From the IMG/VR virus record IMGVR_UViG_3300036846_001176, positions 1 through 29,047 of that record: a stretch of DNA of 29,047 nt; one strand, 5' to 3'. This document shows positions 2,187-28,137 of this stretch, one piece after another. The DNA comes from a virus. The notes beneath the pieces were generated by a model. That model saw nothing but the letters and a program-made list of their open reading frames with translations, did not search any database and was not told the origin of the DNA. The translations under genes and the position numbers were made by a program. Within the stretch, counting starts at the first letter, position 1. Each line of letters begins with the position of its first letter.

Positions 2187-2223
2187 ATTGTCAAAGGTAG
2201 GGAAATCTGGCACAGCGGTGTGT

Positions 2224-2323
2224 GCCAAGGCGAGGCTGGGCAACGCCCGGCAAGGCACGGCATGGCGAGGCTTGACCTGGCAGGCCCGGCTGCCGCCTCT
2301 CGGATCTGCCTCCGAGAGGCGGC
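2224..2323 (+). ncRNA. GGC-NN guide-like small RNA A (1 unit, 11 NN)
   Basis: Pentamer array 2224-2278, then GGCA-GGCCCGGC, then perfect hairpin 2292-2323; TTGTCA at 2188. Confidence 0.8.
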
Positions 2324-4048: not shown

Positions 4049-4684
4049 TCAGAACGGGATTTCGTCGTCAAGGTCCGCTGCGGCCTGCCGTGGGTTGCCC
4101 CAGGAGGGGCCTCTGCCGGTGCCATCGCCGGCAATGCTGCCCCCGCGAGGCTCGTCGCGGCCGGCACCGTTGGTCTCGCGCGGTGGAGCAGCGCGGCGGT
4201 CATCGCCCCGGCCACGGTCGCGGCCACGGTCGTCATCGCGGCCCCGGTCCCGGCCGCGGTCATCGCTGCGACCCCTGTCACGCCCTCGGTCGTCGTCGCG
4301 GCCACGGTCGCGGCCCCGATCGTCGCGGCCGTCGTCGCCGCGCGCGTCGAGCATCTGCAACTCGCCCCGGAAGCGCTGCAGCACGACCTCGGTCGTGTAG
4401 CGGTCAGCGCCGTCGCGGTCGGTCCACTTGCGGGTCTGCAGCGCGCCCTCGACGTAAACCTTGCTGCCCTTGCGCAGGTACTTTTCGGCGACGCCGCCGA
4501 GGTTCTCGTTCCAGATCACCACGTTATGCCACTCGGTGCGCTCCTGGCGGTCGCCTGAGCGATCCTTCCAGGTCTCGCTGGTGGCGAGGCGGAAGCTCAC
4601 CACCTTGTCGCCGTTGTTGGTCGAACGGACTTCCGGATCGGCGCCGAGGTTGCCAACGAGCGTCACCTTGTTGATGCCGGCCAT
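4049..4684 (-). CDS. ssb: single-stranded DNA-binding protein
   Basis: MAGINKVTLVGNLGADPE...TEWHNVV...KGSKVYVEG...; acidic tail LDDEIPF. Confidence 0.97.
   Translation of the reverse strand: MAGINKVTLVGNLGADPEVRSTNNGDKVVSFRLATSETWKDRSGDRQERTEWHNVVIWNENLGGVAEKYLRKGSKVYVEGALQTRKWTDRDGADRYTTEVVLQRFRGELQMLDARGDDGRDDRGRDRGRDDDRGRDRGRSDDRGRDRGRDDDRGRDRGRGDDRRAAPPRETNGAGRDEPRGGSIAGDGTGRGPSWGNPRQAAADLDDEIPF
4199..4325 (-). repeat. 30-bp coding tandem repeat (DDRGRDRGRx x4) in the SSB linker
   Basis: Visible in both DNA and translation. Confidence 0.85.
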
Positions 4685-9077: not shown

Positions 9078-9899
9078 TCACAGTCGCTCTGCGATCTCCT
9101 TGATGATGGTGGCGTTGTACCGCCGGACCTCCTGCTCGATCGTGCCGAGGTCAGGGAACATCTGTCGCAACTGACCGATCTGCTGATCGATATGCGCGAC
9201 GAGCTCCGTCTCGCCTTTGGCGGCGAAGCTCTCCCTGACCGTGGTGTGTTCGACCAGGGCCTTGGCGGCAAACGGGCGTAAGATAGCGCGGGGATGCCCC
9301 ATCGGGTCCCGCTCCAGTCCGCTGATCGCCTCGCGGCGGATCGATGTGCAGATGTCCTGGTAGGCAGCATAGAGCCGCCCGCCGGGCTGGATCACATCCT
9401 CATCGGGGATCAGTTTCCAACCGTCCTTTTCACGGTCCTTGACCACCCGTTCCTTGGAGACCCGCTCGATGTCAGCGAGCGTGTCGACCGAGGCCCATTG
9501 GAACACCTCGAGGTATTCCGGCGGGGATCGGTCCAAAAGCATATTTCCTAACGCATGCGCAACTTCTGCGCGGCCGACCATCTCCCCCGGCTTGCCGCCT
9601 CCGAAGGCGATCAAGGCACGTTGGTTGTAGGCGAGCCGCTCGACATCGTGCACGCGTTCGAAATGCCGTTGGTTGGGATCCGTCCGCCAGGCCACGAGGG
9701 GCCCGGCAAGGGCAGCGATCTGGTTATGACCAAGGGGTGCTGAGTGACCGAGCATGCTATGTAAATCTCTAAACATAGCAAGTGCAGGACCAGGGACACC
9801 AAAGCGAGCGCATTCGGCCAGCACTAACTGGAAGAAATCGCTCTGTGTAGCGGACAATGAAAGCGGGTTGCGGAGCATCTGTGCGATGTCCATTGCCAT
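9078..9899 (-). CDS. hypothetical protein (273 aa)
   Basis: Start MAMDIAQ after the leader motif; the ORF-track extension to 10085 runs through an ncRNA. Confidence 0.8.
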   Translation of the reverse strand: MAMDIAQMLRNPLSLSATQSDFFQLVLAECARFGVPGPALAMFRDLHSMLGHSAPLGHNQIAALAGPLVAWRTDPNQRHFERVHDVERLAYNQRALIAFGGGKPGEMVGRAEVAHALGNMLLDRSPPEYLEVFQWASVDTLADIERVSKERVVKDREKDGWKLIPDEDVIQPGGRLYAAYQDICTSIRREAISGLERDPMGHPRAILRPFAAKALVEHTTVRESFAAKGETELVAHIDQQIGQLRQMFPDLGTIEQEVRRYNATIIKEIAERL

Positions 9900-9986: not shown

Positions 9987-10083
9987 GCAGGACCCGGAGT
10001 GGTACTCCTGGGTCCTGCGTCGCCGGGCCTGCCGCGCCATGCCTTGTTCGGCCGAGCCCTGTCCAGGCTCGCCATGCCCTGAC
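9987..10083 (-). ncRNA. GGC-NN guide-like small RNA B (1 unit, 10 NN)
   Basis: TTGCTT-16-TAGACT promoter (10117-10090), array, GGCA-GGCCCGGC, hairpin 9987-10018. Confidence 0.85.
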
Positions 10084-15556: not shown

Positions 15557-16972
15557 ATGTCCGACCGTTCAGACCGAGGCCGCAGCCCCACCGCGCAAGC
15601 CGCCCTCGCCCCCGAAGTCTCGCCCGACGGCGCCCGCATCAACACCCCCACGGGCTGGCTCATCGATGCCGACGGCAATCGGTTCTCCTTGGTCCGCACC
15701 GCCGACAAAGGCATGCAGATCCGCATCAACGCGTTCGTGGATCAGATCACGCAGTACGTCCTCGCCCTGCAGATGCAGGACGGCACCTGCTACCAGGAAA
15801 CCTCGACCTCCGGCTGGTACGTCTACGGCGGCGCGCCAGGCAACTGGACCAGCAGCCCTGCACCCCCCGGCAGTGGCGCTGGGGGTGGCGGCGGTGGTGG
15901 CGGCGGTGGCCCCACCCCGCCAGTCTCCGGCGGCCTCACCGTGCGCAATGGCCGTGTCGTCGACGACAAGGGCAACGACGTGCACCTGCGTGGGCCAAAT
16001 CTCAGGTTCATGAATTGGCCGGACAACCAGAACTCGGTGATGATGCATCCGATCGCCGATCGGCAGCGTTGCCTGCCGGTGCTCGACACCCTGCCCGGCA
16101 TGAACGTCGTCAGGTTCGATGCCTTCGAAAGTATGACCCAGTTCGACGCCGCATCGCCGCAGAACATCATTCCCTACATCGATGCCATCGTGAACAACGG
16201 CGTGTTCTGCGAGGTCGAGTGCCACATCTATCCCACCCTGCTGCAGGGCGGCGACCTCGAGCGCGTCTGCGGCTGGTACTCGCAACTCGCCCGCCACTAC
16301 AAAGACAATCCGAAAGTCATCTGGGGCACGCAGAATGAACCCGGCGGCGGGCCGGATGGTGAAATCAACCGGATCTACGATGCTATCCGAAACGAGGGCA
16401 ATCAGAATTTGATCCTGATGTGCCCGGAAGGCGGATGGTCGTGGTCGAACATGAACCCGGTCAACTACCAGCGCCTGCGCAATGTCGCTTGGGATTTCCA
16501 CTACTACGGCTGGATCCCCAACTATTCCATGGACCCCGCCGTCAACGATCAGGTCCTGCTCGACAACTACAACGGCTCGCTGCGCTTCCAGTCGGCCGAC
16601 GGCAACATCCCGATGTTCGTCGGCGAATTCAGTCCATGCGGCTTCCAGAACTCGAACGCGATTTTCGTGGAAAACGCCTTCTGGATGGACCCCAACGGCC
16701 TCTTGGTCATCGATAGCGTCTACCGCGCGCCGTTCCTCTCGGGTTGGATGCAATGGTTCTGGAATACCCCGGAGACCTCGGCCAGCAACGGGATCGGATT
16801 TTTGCTGAAACCGGATGGCAATTACAACGGCAGCGCCGTTACCGATCACGGCGGCAAGCAGATGGTCGAAGCGCTCCGCCGCGGCTCGCCGGCGGCCGCC
16901 TCGGCTAGCGCCCAAAGCGACGCCAGCGCCGCCGCCGTCGATCAGCGCCAGACCCAGACCAGGGGCCGCTAA
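15557..16972 (+). CDS. glycoside hydrolase family 5-like protein
   Basis: LTVRNGRVVD..G..VHLRGPN, GMNVVR, NEP (acid/base), FHYY, FVGEF (nucleophile); N-terminal domain plus Gly/Pro linker. Confidence 0.85.
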   Translation: MSDRSDRGRSPTAQAALAPEVSPDGARINTPTGWLIDADGNRFSLVRTADKGMQIRINAFVDQITQYVLALQMQDGTCYQETSTSGWYVYGGAPGNWTSSPAPPGSGAGGGGGGGGGGPTPPVSGGLTVRNGRVVDDKGNDVHLRGPNLRFMNWPDNQNSVMMHPIADRQRCLPVLDTLPGMNVVRFDAFESMTQFDAASPQNIIPYIDAIVNNGVFCEVECHIYPTLLQGGDLERVCGWYSQLARHYKDNPKVIWGTQNEPGGGPDGEINRIYDAIRNEGNQNLILMCPEGGWSWSNMNPVNYQRLRNVAWDFHYYGWIPNYSMDPAVNDQVLLDNYNGSLRFQSADGNIPMFVGEFSPCGFQNSNAIFVENAFWMDPNGLLVIDSVYRAPFLSGWMQWFWNTPETSASNGIGFLLKPDGNYNGSAVTDHGGKQMVEALRRGSPAAASASAQSDASAAAVDQRQTQTRGR

Positions 16973-20054: not shown

Positions 20055-20584
20055 TGCTAGGCTCGTCTAGGCATGTCCTGGCTCGGCAAGGCGTGGCAGG
20101 GCAGGCAGCGCACGGCGGGGCTTGGCCCGGCAACGCAGGGCTCGGCATGGCAGGCACGGCTAGGCTCGGCATGTCAGGGCGCGCCTAGGCATGGCGGGGC
20201 AGGCGGGGCTGGGCTCGGCGAGGCACGTCGCGGCGAGGCTGGGCTCGGCAGGCACGGTTAGGCTTGCCACGGCCAGCCGCGGCACGGCACGGCAGGCTAG
20301 GCTCGGCAACGCGAGGCGCGACGAGGCGCGGCATGGCAGGCGAGGCTTGGCGTGGCTAGGCGCGACAGGGCCCGGCACGGCAGGCTAGGCGCGCCAAGGC
20401 AAGGCAGGGCGCGGCGTGCCCAGGCTCGGCTAGGCAAGGCAGGCGCGCCCTGGCACGGCAAGGCGCGGCGCGCCCAGGCTCGGCTAGGCAGGCAAGGCTT
20501 GGCCTGGCACGACGGGGCTGGGCGCGGCATGGCAGGGCACGGCCGGCACAGCGTTTCGGCAACGGTTCACCGGTCCGGAAACGC
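20055..20584 (+). ncRNA. long GGC-NN guide-like array (10 units)
   Basis: Pentamers punctuated by GGCA at 20100, 20149, 20198, 20247, 20291, 20335, 20379, 20438, 20487 and GGCC at 20541; TTGACG at 20020; 3' hairpin containing ACGGTTCACCGG. Confidence 0.9.
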
Positions 20585-20635: not shown

Positions 20636-21337
20636 GAGTTACGGCAGGCACGATGCCTGCCGAGCCATACGGGCGAGATTTTGGGGGTCTCACCGCATGG
20701 CATGGGAATTCGGTTGAGGTTCTGGCGAAGGCCGGGAGGCACTGTATCCTCAAGTCCGGGCGACGCCTCGTCTGCCTGCCGTGAGTTCCCTCACAAGGCA
20801 GAGCCTCTAGCCGCACCGCCCCATCTGGCGACGCCCACAGCCGTGGGCGAAGCTCAAACTGGCAGCCCCCCACAGGCCAAAGGCAGGGGTTGTGTCATTT
20901 GCCTGCCGTGAAGCAGGCGTGGCTTGACGCTGGGAGCGATGCGACATCGAGCAACTCGCCGACTGGATGGGCCAAAAGCGCACCCACCGGCACCACGTGA
21001 CTGGCATCGGTCCCTAGATCACAAGGATAGGGCTCTGCCGGGTGGTCGTGGCATCAGCTTGCTGCGAGCCTGCCCATAGTCGAAGCCGTGGGCAGGGATC
21101 GTTCGAGGGTTTAGGCAGGATGGTGGCAGCCACCCATTAGTGCCTGGTTCGCGCCGCTTAGGCTTGCCACGGCTATGCGAAATTCCTTTTGGTTTCCTCC
21201 CTCGACGGGATCCGATCAAGTCACCGGGCAACCGGGCCCGGAGCATCTTATCGCGGCGAAGGCCGCTATCGCCACTGACGGGAGCGAAGACGTCCGCTTG
21301 ATCACTACGGGACTGATATGGTTATCCGTCCCGCAGT
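20585..21337 (-). ncRNA. candidate large structured ncRNA (about 750 nt)
   Basis: No credible ORF; many stems; TACACT at 21348-21343; strong terminator. Confidence 0.6.
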
Positions 21338-21964: not shown

Positions 21965-22030
21965 GGATCTGCCTTTCGCGCCCAATGGCAGGGGCGTTCT
22001 CTGCCCCACGCCATTATGACGTGGGAAAGG

Positions 22031-22474
22031 TCAGGGTCGTTTTTCGGTCCAGGTCTTGAACTCGCGGAGCTGCTCGGGATCGAGCCAGTCCCAGCGTCCC
22101 TCGAAGCGGATCGCGCGGTCGTCGATCGTCAGGAAGGCGGGAGGTTTCTGGTTGGTAAACTCCAGGAGAATGAGATCTGCCCGGCGTGCGTGCAGCAGCC
22201 GCAGGAACGGTGAAGCTTCGCTCGGAAAATCGGTAATTTGCCAGCCTTCCTGGAAGGCGTGTCCACCGATCCAGACTGCCATTTCTTTGATGCTGTCCGG
22301 GTCTTTCGAGCGTGAGCTGTAAACGACCAGGCGGAAGTGCTTGCCGGCCTTGTGGGCCCAATCGAGAAACCCTGGCGTCACGGTGCCGTAGAGCTCGCCG
22401 TTCTGCCAGCCTCGCTCATAGCTGTGGATTACGCCATCAAAGTCGAGACAGATGACCGGACGATCGCTTGGCAT
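22031..22474 (-). CDS. HAD-superfamily phosphatase-like protein
   Basis: ICLDFDGVIH, YSSR, KPPA..TIDDRA. Confidence 0.85.
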   Translation of the reverse strand: MPSDRPVICLDFDGVIHSYERGWQNGELYGTVTPGFLDWAHKAGKHFRLVVYSSRSKDPDSIKEMAVWIGGHAFQEGWQITDFPSEASPFLRLLHARRADLILLEFTNQKPPAFLTIDDRAIRFEGRWDWLDPEQLREFKTWTEKRP

Positions 22475-22527
22475 GGCGTGGCCTTTCGTGCCGTTGACGG
22501 ACGATGAAAACACTGCACATTATCTTG

Positions 22528-22682
22528 GACCAGGCTCGGCATGGCAAGTTCCGGCTCGGCGTGGCAGGGAGTGGCCCGGCTAGGCACGGCAGGCGTGGCG
22601 GGGCCTGGCTCGTCCGGGCAAGGCACGGCGTGGCGCGGCCGGCACGGCAAGCCCCGCGGCAACGGTTCACCGGCCGCGGGGC
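22528..22682 (+). ncRNA. GGC-NN guide-like small RNA C (2 units, 12 + 9 NN)
   Basis: TTGACG at 22494; GGCA at 22588; GGCC at 22637; hairpin 22651-22682 with ACGGTTCACCGG. Confidence 0.85.
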
Positions 22683-22689
22683 ACCTCCC

Positions 22690-22899
22690 TTAGAACGCTA
22701 GCAGCAGCAACTGCTCGGCGCCGTACACGGAACGTTGGCCACACGCCTCGCACTTGTAGCGCTCGGCATCCGGTTCACAACCTTCCGCGTCGGCGCCGCA
22801 ATCGATGCAAAAACCTGGATTGTCCAGGTCCAGCAAACCTTGCTCAGCCGCCTGCTGGACGCGTTCCTGGGTCAGGCTCGGGTGGAGTTTCAGTGCCAT
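22690..22899 (-). CDS. small zinc-ribbon protein
   Basis: GFCIDCG...EPDA..YKCEACG...VYGAE. Confidence 0.8.
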   Translation of the reverse strand: MALKLHPSLTQERVQQAAEQGLLDLDNPGFCIDCGADAEGCEPDAERYKCEACGQRSVYGAEQLLLLAF

Positions 22900-23002
22900 G
22901 TGGTGGCCTTTCGCCGGAGTACAGCCGGCTCTCTGCCGTGCTGCGTTGGTGCAGCACGAAAGGCGGGTTGACAGCTTTCGTAAATATAGAACATGATGAT
23001 GT

Positions 23003-23105
23003 GTCCTCGCCTGGCGAGGCAAGGCCTGTCCGGGCCAGACGCGGCGCGACTTGGCACGGCGCGGCAGGCTTGAGGAACCCCGCAGCTGTAGCCGCGGGGT
23101 TCTTC
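23003..23105 (+). ncRNA. GGC-NN guide-like small RNA D (1 unit, 12 NN)
   Basis: TTGACA-18-CATGAT (22968-22997), array, GGCA at 23063, hairpin 23072-23105. Confidence 0.85.
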
Positions 23106-23115
23106 GTTTGCGCGG

Positions 23116-23583
23116 TCAGCCGTGAAACGCTGCGTGGCGCAATTTTTCTAACAGACCTTCGGCGATTTGCGCTGTCAGCGCGGGGCATTCGCTGGTGGTC
23201 GCGTTCATGAGCAGCTTGGCCAGGACCTTGGCCTCGACCTCGGTGACCGGGAGCATGGTCGTGAGGTAGACTGGCGGCTCGATGGTGACCTGGCCGGCGA
23301 ACAAATAGTCCTCGGCGCCTGCATCTTCAGGCTTCATGCCTGATGCGTTGTCGAAGCAGTTTTCCAACACGCAATCAGCGGCCTCCGCCAACTCAGGCGA
23401 GAGCTCGATCGAGAGCGGCCAGGTGGCCGTGTCGGTCGCGTTGCCGATCAGTGTCTGGAGGTCATCGAGGTGCAGGGCGCGGTCGGCTTCTCCGTTGTCC
23501 GCCGCGACCTCGCTCATGCCTTCGGCCATGGAGCAGAACACCTTTGCGGCGCGAAGATCGGCGATCGTTAAGCTGTGGCTCAT
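23116..23583 (-). CDS. hypothetical protein (MSHSLT...)
   Basis: ATGA coupling with 23580-23774. Confidence 0.75.
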   Translation of the reverse strand: MSHSLTIADLRAAKVFCSMAEGMSEVAADNGEADRALHLDDLQTLIGNATDTATWPLSIELSPELAEAADCVLENCFDNASGMKPEDAGAEDYLFAGQVTIEPPVYLTTMLPVTEVEAKVLAKLLMNATTSECPALTAQIAEGLLEKLRHAAFHG

Positions 23584-23780: not shown

Positions 23781-23838
23781 GCCTTTCGCCGGAGACAGCC
23801 GGCTCTCTGCCGTGGCGCGTTGGTGCGACACGAAAGGC
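23781..23838 (-). promoter_or_regulatory. RBS-sequestering leader, clearest copy
   Basis: GCCUUUC-[GUGUCGCACCAACGCGCCAC]-GGCAGAGA-[GCCGGCUGUCUCCGGC]-GAAAGGC-N6-AUG. Confidence 0.85.
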
Positions 23839-24609: not shown

Positions 24610-24708
24610 GTGGAATGCTTTCTACGCCCAAACAGGGACGCTCTCTGCCCCGTTGGATGTTCGGGGAAGTTAATTGACGATGATGGAAAATGGCACATAC
24701 AATGCTGT

Positions 24709-24792
24709 GCTATGGCATGGCTTGGCAACGCCGGCCATGGCACGGCAGGGCAGGCATGGCATCCCGCGGCGACGGTTCACCGGCCGCGGGGT
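24709..24792 (+). ncRNA. GGC-NN guide-like small RNA E (1 unit, 7-8 NN)
   Basis: TTGACG-18-TACAAT (24674-24703); GGCA at 24749; hairpin with ACGGTTCACCGG. Confidence 0.8.
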
Positions 24793-24863
24793 CACTCTGT
24801 GCTTTCACGCCCGAACAGGGGCGTTCTCTGCCCTCCGGCGTTGGTGCTGGAGGAAAGCCACCC

Positions 24864-25932: not shown

Positions 25933-26005
25933 GGTGTTTCCTTTCACGACCAGACAGGGTCGCTCTCTGCCACGCAGCGTTGGTGCTGCGTGAAAGGCGC
26001 CCGCG

Positions 26006-27039: not shown

Positions 27040-27447
27040 TCAGTGCCCGTTCGACGCGTGATAAAGGTTGCGCAGTGCGCAGCGCAGCCGAAAACGCTGT
27101 TCTGCAGGCACAGCCTCGTTGAGGGTGAGGTTGATGGCGCTGCGGAATGCGTCTCTCCTGGTTCGCAGGAATTCGATGATGTCCACGGGGAAATCATCCT
27201 CGGCCAGCAGGGCGCACAGCACAGTGTCATTGCGTGCGTTGCGCGCTTTCCGCGTCGAGCGGATGTTGTTGATAACCGCGCGACCTTCCTCCTGCGCCAG
27301 CTGGTAGCCGGCGGTGATCACGATGGCTGCTCCGACAATTCCGGCGGCTTTCGCCATATTGCCGAGCGTCGGTGCCATCGCTGACCTTGAGGAGCTGTAA
27401 AGCCCGCTCGAAGGGTGTCGCAACGTATCCTGCATGGTAAAGCTCAT
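27040..27447 (-). CDS. hypothetical protein
   Basis: Leader motif upstream. Confidence 0.65.
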   Translation of the reverse strand: MSFTMQDTLRHPSSGLYSSSRSAMAPTLGNMAKAAGIVGAAIVITAGYQLAQEEGRAVINNIRSTRKARNARNDTVLCALLAEDDFPVDIIEFLRTRRDAFRSAINLTLNEAVPAEQRFRLRCALRNLYHASNGH

Positions 27448-27562
27448 TGAGCTTTCCTTCCTTTCACCGGAGACAGCCGGTTCTCTGCCGTGCCGCGGGG
27501 ATCGCGACACGAAAGGATGTGGGGTTGGTTGAATGGGCCTCGGCCTGGACCGAGGCCACCAT

Positions 27563-27769: not shown

Positions 27770-27891
27770 GTGAGTGCCTTTCACGCCCATGATGGGCGCT
27801 TTCTACCCGGTCAGCGGGATGCTGCCGGAAAGGCATTGGGGTGCGAGACGGTCCAGACGTACTGGACCGCTCGATGGGATGCCGGACGCCC

Positions 27892-28137
27892 CTACTCCCT
27901 TCGCGAGCGCCGGTCGTGATTGTCCGTGATGAAGTACTGGCCGATCCGTCGGCCAGCGATGTTCAAAGGGCCGCCTCCGGTCGGTATTCCGCCGGCGGCC
28001 AAGGCCCCGCTCACTCTGTCAGCGAACTCGCCGTCAAACACCAGCCTCACGGAGGCGGTGGAGTTTCTCGGGCGTACGACGACTTCCACGTGACGATGGT
28101 CGTTCGCCGGTGGGGCGTATTGTGGGGATCTGGGCAT
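27892..28137 (-). CDS. hypothetical protein
   Basis: AGGAGG RBS; promoter motif at 28253. Confidence 0.6.
   Translation of the reverse strand: MPRSPQYAPPANDHRHVEVVVRPRNSTASVRLVFDGEFADRVSGALAAGGIPTGGGPLNIAGRRIGQYFITDNHDRRSRRE

Follow-up and report, generated by a model that had tools for sequence, protein, structure and literature searches.

Organization of guide cassette D

The window analyzed here is a stretch of 29,047 bp that corresponds to bases 1-29047 of the phage record IMGVR_UViG_3300036846_001176 (104,559 bp). The whole record (G000 C1) is classed as linear and its ends share ~180 bp of overlap, which is consistent with a complete circular assembly. Two relatives reached via a structural gene were used for comparison: G002 (102.6 kb, complete), whose vipr gene is 73% identical, and G001 (75 kb, partial), in which no guide tracts were called. 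The genome of the phage under study contains 35 guide tracts that are arranged as two staggered arrays and seven stand-alone cassettes. Cassette D is one of the latter, is ~140 bp in length and non-coding, and is flanked by a convergent gene:

22968..22997 (+), sigma70-like promoter of guide cassette D; -35 and -10 elements 18 nt apart, 10/12 consensus matches
23003..23069 (+), vrRNA guide tract D; ends in the cap common to the guides of the phage
23071..23106 (+), 3′ hairpin tail of the guide D RNA; stem predicted at -28 kcal/mol (23066-23118)
23116..23583 (-), neighbour gene, 155 aa, convergent with guide D; no Pfam or PHROG match
23119..23154 (-), own near-target of guide D; 19/24 read bases matched in wobble register over the final 12 codons of the neighbour gene
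C1 31465-32310 (-), vipr gene, 8.4 kb from cassette D

The guide D tract is built of GGC/NN pentamers in which GGY-like triplets alternate with 12 variable dinucleotides (23006-23062), giving 12 units, or 13 if the degenerate first triplet at 23003 is counted. Six promoter-like sites were found compared to an expectation of 0.4, and three of these precede guide cassettes, at 22528, 23003 and 24704. The hairpin at 23071-23106 was not called in a scan for intrinsic terminators and an Rfam scan returned nothing near threshold.

The Vipr-vrRNA complex binds double-stranded DNA by a skip code and represses transcription, as set out in the VIPR preprints (bioRxiv 10.64898/2026.04.26.720920 and.720927). 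The systems described in the available portions of these preprints possess a 12-unit GGY/NN tract, a structured 3′ tail and a one-base skip on the wobble position. Guide D likewise comprises 12 units, within the range of 9-16 alternating GGY/NN units for VIPR guides, is followed by a predicted hairpin, and is one of a set of guides for which a skip of one base alone gives unique local matches. The phage vipr product belongs to PHROG 4652 (E 4e-13), the same family as SUSP1 Vipr (E 1e-96). HHalign of the two gave a probability of 93% over 177 columns, and the sole PDB match of the phage profile was 36pp, 'SUSP1 Vipr protein' (E 1e-4). As in the known systems, an accessory gene and a staggered array come after this vipr homolog: a 168-aa vap gene (PHROG 15946) is situated between vipr and the array. 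The phage differs from SUSP1 in its predicted simple hairpin tail and in this accessory gene, which is of another family than Vap1 (PHROG 5926) and has no BLAST similarity to it. Vap has no noteworthy Pfam match and no solved relative, and its predicted model has a pLDDT of 89.5. Judged by its sequence, cassette D is a stand-alone VIPR guide-RNA gene. It falls outside the definition of a solo (orphan) vrRNA given in the accessible text of 10.64898/2026.10.15.759431, namely a contig without vipr or with its closest copy >20 kb distant, as vipr is only 8.4 kb away.

Guide D matches the end of the adjacent gene

The preliminary description of this DNA proposed that guide D spells the end of the adjacent gene with two leucine codon swaps, and this was borne out. 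With a one-base skip the guide matches 18/20 read bases over the first ten units and 19/24 overall; the ungapped per-unit matches on the minus strand from 23154 are 2,1,2,2,1,2,2,2,2,2,0,1. Both early mismatches are at leucine codons that are of the TTR family at the site and CTN in the guide. No other site in the 104.6-kb genome matches as well, the runner-up being at 16/20, and the match is evident only at skip 1 as skips of 0, 2 and 3 yield 14-15/24. The final two units also fit as first described if an extra C is allowed, matching 4/4 only at the +1 shift; a random position provides a 4/4 shifted match in 1.3% (shift 1) or 2.7% (shift 1-2) of cases. The target was placed ~15 bp beyond the hairpin in the original account. 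Its nearness to the hairpin stands, with the distance corrected to 12-13 bp.

A fortuitous match in a GC-rich genome is extremely improbable. Although 7/300 order-shuffled versions of guide D reached 19/24 somewhere in the genome, 0/300 attained 18/20, and the match, 55 bp away from guide D, keeps the codon register and exists at skip 1 only. Guide D moreover is one of 13 such cases, and chance effectively is refuted by the local-match test described below. The leucine swaps at the guide D site considered alone are not significant (2/4 eligible codons, P 0.09-0.22; 4/17 of the other leucine codons in the neighbour gene are TTR), and attain significance only within the whole set of own sites. 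No exact guide D target was recovered in viral contigs (10 units) or metagenome contigs (12 units), and among 195 fetched loci none was a better target, the best being 18/24.

The neighbour gene and its C-terminus

The neighbour protein has 45 homologs at E≤0.001, the best of which is 60% identical. This family was found by exhaustive protein search alone: a word-indexed protein search returned only the protein itself, and Atlas leads were <0.9. The guide D site encodes the conserved terminal motif of the family. The preliminary description predicted a longer C-terminus in homologs that lack the cassette, a prediction that was not supported. Among seven homologs that carry the C-terminal module, the stops counted from the start of the motif are located at 0, +3, -1, -1, +1, +13 and -1 residues relative to the phage gene, where the +3 offset was taken from an alignment. 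Thus, six of the seven terminate within -1 to +3 residues and one at +13. The nearest homolog (60% identical) stops at the same position and ends in the residue implied by the last unit of guide D. As homologs stop at about the same place, the neighbour gene, judged from these sequences, is probably not truncated. The extra C then would be half of a compensated slip, in which a one-base gain was offset by a loss just ahead of the stop, or else would reflect substitutions that coincide by chance.

No homolog exceeded the phage protein in compatibility with guide D at the protein level (10/12 for the phage protein, ≤9 for homologs). Homolog DNA was sought in viral contigs, GTDB genomes, a phage collection, G001 and G002, and at seven loci of the upstream Zn-finger-like gene; none was found. 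The neighbour gene is absent from both G001 and G002. The neighbour protein (23116-23583; homologs P0206, P0209 and P0212) is modular: an N-terminal part of ~100 aa is accompanied by varied C-termini, and the C-terminal part of ~50 aa also occurs in separate small proteins.

Guides beside near-matching genes in two phages

All 66 guides of the phage and G002 were assessed by requiring that the best match within ≤1 kb beat all other 2-kb windows. A local best match was observed for 13/24 stand-alone or array-end guides, 6/12 of them in the case of G002, compared to 0/42 array-internal guides (Fisher P 1.2e-7). The layout of guide beside target recurs at 12-15 loci across the two phages, with the own alleles 55-830 bp from their guides. 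Codon analysis was performed with 15 own sites, comprising 12 of the 13 and three G002 sites (51124, 54089 and 62242) that were identified via the orthologue in the relative and did not beat all windows. Guide E (11/18), array-end guide 20491 and the G001 alignment for guide 91319, which an indel put out of register, were dropped from the codon tests. The 15 sites occupy either strand and all are in the wobble register of the long open frame of the neighbouring gene. Targets include vipr and vap, a DUF2460 gene, genes for a DNA methylase and the terminase large subunit, and genes of the tail region; the labels of terminase and tail region derive from reading of translations and gene order rather than database calls. 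The other cassettes and the array in the window are as follows:

2209..2281 (+), sister cassette A; no local match found; absent from G002 (gap 255 vs 91 bp)
9751..9779 (+), own site matched by guide B at 16/20
10031..10083 (-), guide tract of sister cassette B
20060..20543 (+), staggered array with 10 guide units, the internal ones without own near-match
22359..22393 (+), own site nearly matched by cassette C; located in the HAD-like gene 22031-22513 (-) and antisense to it
22494..22690 (+), sister cassette C; two guide units with promoter and hairpin; first unit 19/24 to the HAD-like gene
24674..24800 (+), sister cassette E; local match (11/18) not significant

The four mismatched bases between guide B and its own site all lie within three synonymous swaps between codon families (Arg, Leu and Ser). 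None of 25 HAD homologs (0/25) matched guide C better than the gene of the phage itself.

The pattern is not general. In a survey of 600 guides at 131 IMG/VR loci, 80 of which had full flanks, local matches were noted for 1/61 solo and 6/260 array-end guides, with controls of 0-1 and 1-5, respectively. In the unrelated IMG/VR phages L063, L015, L068 and L095, strong local near-matches of 19/22, 18/22, 23/30 and 18/24 were seen, some from array-internal guides. Within the window, the last guide of the array (20491-20543) has a 16/20 match 410 bp away at 20953-20981, a region in which G002 reaches only 12/20. The stretch matched is conserved with G002 at the DNA level and has no clear reading frame; the match may be due to chance or may denote a non-coding target. 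The first guide of the main array (C1 30882-30939) matches vipr (31766-31797) at 18/22 in the phage itself and 20/22 in G002, and the first array guide of G002 (27306-27363) matches its own vap at 17/22. In both phages the main array thus begins with a guide directed at the VIPR operon. Two array guides are common to both phages, with 10 and 8 identical units (G000 C1 30612-30669 and 30553-30615; G002 27414-27481 and 27868-27930); their targets were not found. Aligned DNA of the two phages is only ~65-75% alike.

Empty and shared cassette sites

The first account suggested that the cassette inserted beside its own target in a manner reminiscent of homing. Relatives with an empty site, which were found for sister cassettes, support the first part of this suggestion. 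At cassette 91319 of G002, a clean insertion has placed ~135 bp between two genes that adjoin each other in the phage under study (gap of 214 bp vs 76 bp). The guide of this cassette matches the empty-site orthologue in the phage at 21/22 compared to 18/22 in its carrier G002, with two reciprocal leucine swaps. Gap lengths reveal further empty sites (263 vs 78 bp; 255 vs 91 bp), and G001, which lacks a cassette after the structural gene, matches the guide of G002 at this locus at 21/24 compared to 17/24 for G002 itself. The turnover of guides at shared sites makes the suggestion only partly right. Three intergenic gaps are occupied by a cassette in both the phage and G002, but the guides differ; at two of these loci the guides of the two phages target different sites of one and the same neighbouring gene. 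Thus, guide content turns over at fixed sites.

The likeness to homing is one of geometry. The seg/mob free-standing homing endonucleases of T4 (intronless homing and marker exclusion; PMC2988022) are likewise optional intergenic elements with a nearby conserved target, and optional intergenic location, empty alleles in kin and a target tens to hundreds of bases away were found for the sister cassettes, although not for cassette D, whose neighbour gene neither relative has. True homing, in which gene conversion would follow a break or a blocked fork at the allele that lacks the cassette, nonetheless is very unlikely. Unlike seg/mob, the ~140 bp cassettes are non-coding and so include no nuclease, their specificity resides in RNA and the effector acts in trans. 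A genome search for the nuclease domains HNH, GIY-YIG and HNH_3 identified none of the first two and a single HNH_3 at 79,984, 57 kb distant. Vipr is described as a repressor in the VIPR preprints, and Vap, as stated above, has no noteworthy Pfam match and no solved relative.

The shared sites bear also on how guides arise. The guides may have been written from DNA adjoining the cassette, either that of the phage or of a recombining relative, after which the phage copy mutated to escape. Proximity then would be a record of acquisition instead of selection for linkage, although the two are compatible. Different guides directed at different positions of the same neighbour at two shared sites, and the lack of own local matches among array-internal guides, fit this proposal, and no account of how guides gain specificity was found in the available text of the VIPR preprints. 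However, a significant local match is missing for 11/24 stand-alone or end guides, the guides of arrays must originate otherwise, many own mismatches are non-synonymous and no candidate writing enzyme was found. An origin of this type as the reason for the pattern is quite unlikely.

Mismatches at own and relatives' sites

Codons for Leu, Arg or Ser at which the guide encodes the same residue were considered eligible for a swap between codon families. At the 15 own sites 14/23 eligible codons belong to the family that the guide does not read, compared to expectations of 6.6 (genome), 7.3 (pooled target genes) and 8.2 (per gene), with P values from 8e-5 to 0.0035. The bias persisted when guide D was omitted (12/19, P 0.0009-0.008) and was borderline when guides B and D both were removed (9/15, P 0.047). 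The signal derives mostly from the phage under study (8/11), and G002 alone is not significant (6/12, P 0.18). Orthologous sites in relatives showed 9/22 swaps vs 9.5 expected. Where carrier and relative encode the same residue with different families, the relative fits the guide in 6/8 comparisons.

Most own-site mismatches are non-synonymous (42/56 codons). The orthologue in the relative matches better than the own site for 8/13 guides, and the own site is better, by 1-2 bases, for 5/13. At positions that differ between self and relative, the guide agrees with the relative at 40, with self at 30 and with neither at 13. The aligned target proteins of self and relative are ~41-91% identical; these two comparisons (8/13 and 40 vs 30) therefore indicate that the guides resemble their carrier no more than they do phages with this degree of identity in the proteins concerned. 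Mismatches were not enriched near the tail (28/120 vs 42/200, P 0.68), the end at which the structure preprint (.720927, available passages) places initial target engagement. Enrichment of A/T wobble bases was borderline, at 50/147 in own sites vs 393/1494 (P 0.051) and 5/12 in the guide D site vs 25/135 (P 0.07).

Own sites match their guides at 67-89%, and 7/15 are at ≥80%, the cut-off for natural targets in the discovery preprint (10.64898/2026.04.26.720920, as far as available). Thus, self-binding is possible, and the guides might partly repress neighbouring genes of the phage itself with mismatches that tune the strength. A functional SUSP1 guide averages 89% of read bases at natural targets (10.64898/2026.10.15.759431, available text), the own site is the better match in the 5/13 cases above, and the 18/22 match of the first array guide to the vipr gene of the same phage is as in an autoregulatory loop. 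Such regulation as the basis of the layout nevertheless is unlikely: a guide that acts in trans does not have to be linked to its target, own sites show a synonymous bias away from the guide, and distant relatives match as well or better. Moreover, relatives keep the genes yet lack cassettes, and terminase and tail genes are among the targets.

Proposed role of linked guides

The probable, albeit far from certain, explanation is that guide D and its counterparts are directed against kin and are kept beside the phage's own mismatched, resistant alleles. By analogy with the systems in the VIPR preprints, the guide RNA would load Vipr and silence or block the allele of a kin phage in mixed infection, while the phage's own allele likely escapes via mismatches at read positions. 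Wobble positions are skipped by the guide, so that escape with an unchanged protein would require swaps between the codon families of Leu, Arg or Ser. As kin phages recombine, a guide directed at kin might persist only if it is tightly linked to the resistant allele. Linkage would hold the two together through recombination, and guide and allele then would behave as a poison-antidote module. Array-internal guides match no own gene locally, and so would need no such linkage.

A bolder version is doubtful: the 140-bp guide gene and the recoded patch would constitute a natural, nuclease-free, RNA-guided selfish module that moves as a unit through the phage population by crippling cassette-free kin in mixed infections, and whose guides are written from adjacent DNA. 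If true, it would expose how VIPR guides acquire new targets.

The VIPR preprints present guides as a means of attack on satellites, other phages and rival VIPR loci. A guide linked to a mismatched own allele was not described in the passages searched, nor in those of 10.64898/2026.10.21.760802, and the term 'homing' is absent from the three VIPR preprints. The discovery preprint (10.64898/2026.04.26.720920) reports no self match of ≥80% in three sets (P. fulva, type III and type V); the phage under study differs in that single cassettes are dispersed beside near-matching own genes. Solo vrRNAs of F5 satellites and SUSP1-family phages (10.64898/2026.10.15.759431, accessible text) also are stand-alone, and some target the vipr or vrRNAs of relatives with a self-match below that to the rival. 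Those guides are directed at VIPR machinery, satellites or REP decoys and have no vipr nearby, whereas the phage here possesses its own Vipr and the guides target ordinary genes (terminase, tail, methylase and hypotheticals). Engineered CRISPR toxin-antidote drives (10.64898/2026.07.12.738060, in the part available) similarly link a guide against the wild-type allele to a recoded copy. Unlike these, the phage cassettes are natural, occur in phages and are predicted to silence rather than cut.

If the preferred reading of anti-kin guides is correct, the phage pair exemplifies guides turned on close kin, each beside the allele of its carrier, and provides a natural parallel to the engineered drives. 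The VIPR preprints argue, in their available text, that wobble skipping blocks synonymous escape. Swaps between Leu, Arg and Ser codon families are the one synonymous route left, and this route is used above chance. Natural matched and mismatched sites could be used to determine the number of mismatches that protects a gene, and fixed cassette sites with guides that have turned over are suited to the question of guide acquisition.

Other features of the window

A structured leader is present on the minus strand at 21973-22030, 22908-22963, 23783-23837, 25941-25997 and 27461-27516. It is located just upstream of many small genes and consists of a closing stem that encloses two hairpins connected by a conserved purine-rich linker, a layout reminiscent of a hammerhead ribozyme with a shortened core. 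The leader had no Rfam match, and a literature search showed no paper on its core. Five strict copies occur in the window and six in G002, with looser copies in repeat families D4-D11. The gene at 15557-16972 (+) specifies a glycoside hydrolase family 5 (cellulase) domain with a Gly/Pro linker and has no tblastn match in G001 or G002. A gene at 4049-4684 (-), labelled from its translation, encodes a single-strand-binding-like protein with an Arg/Asp/Gly-rich repeat that corresponds to a tandem array at 4196-4326.
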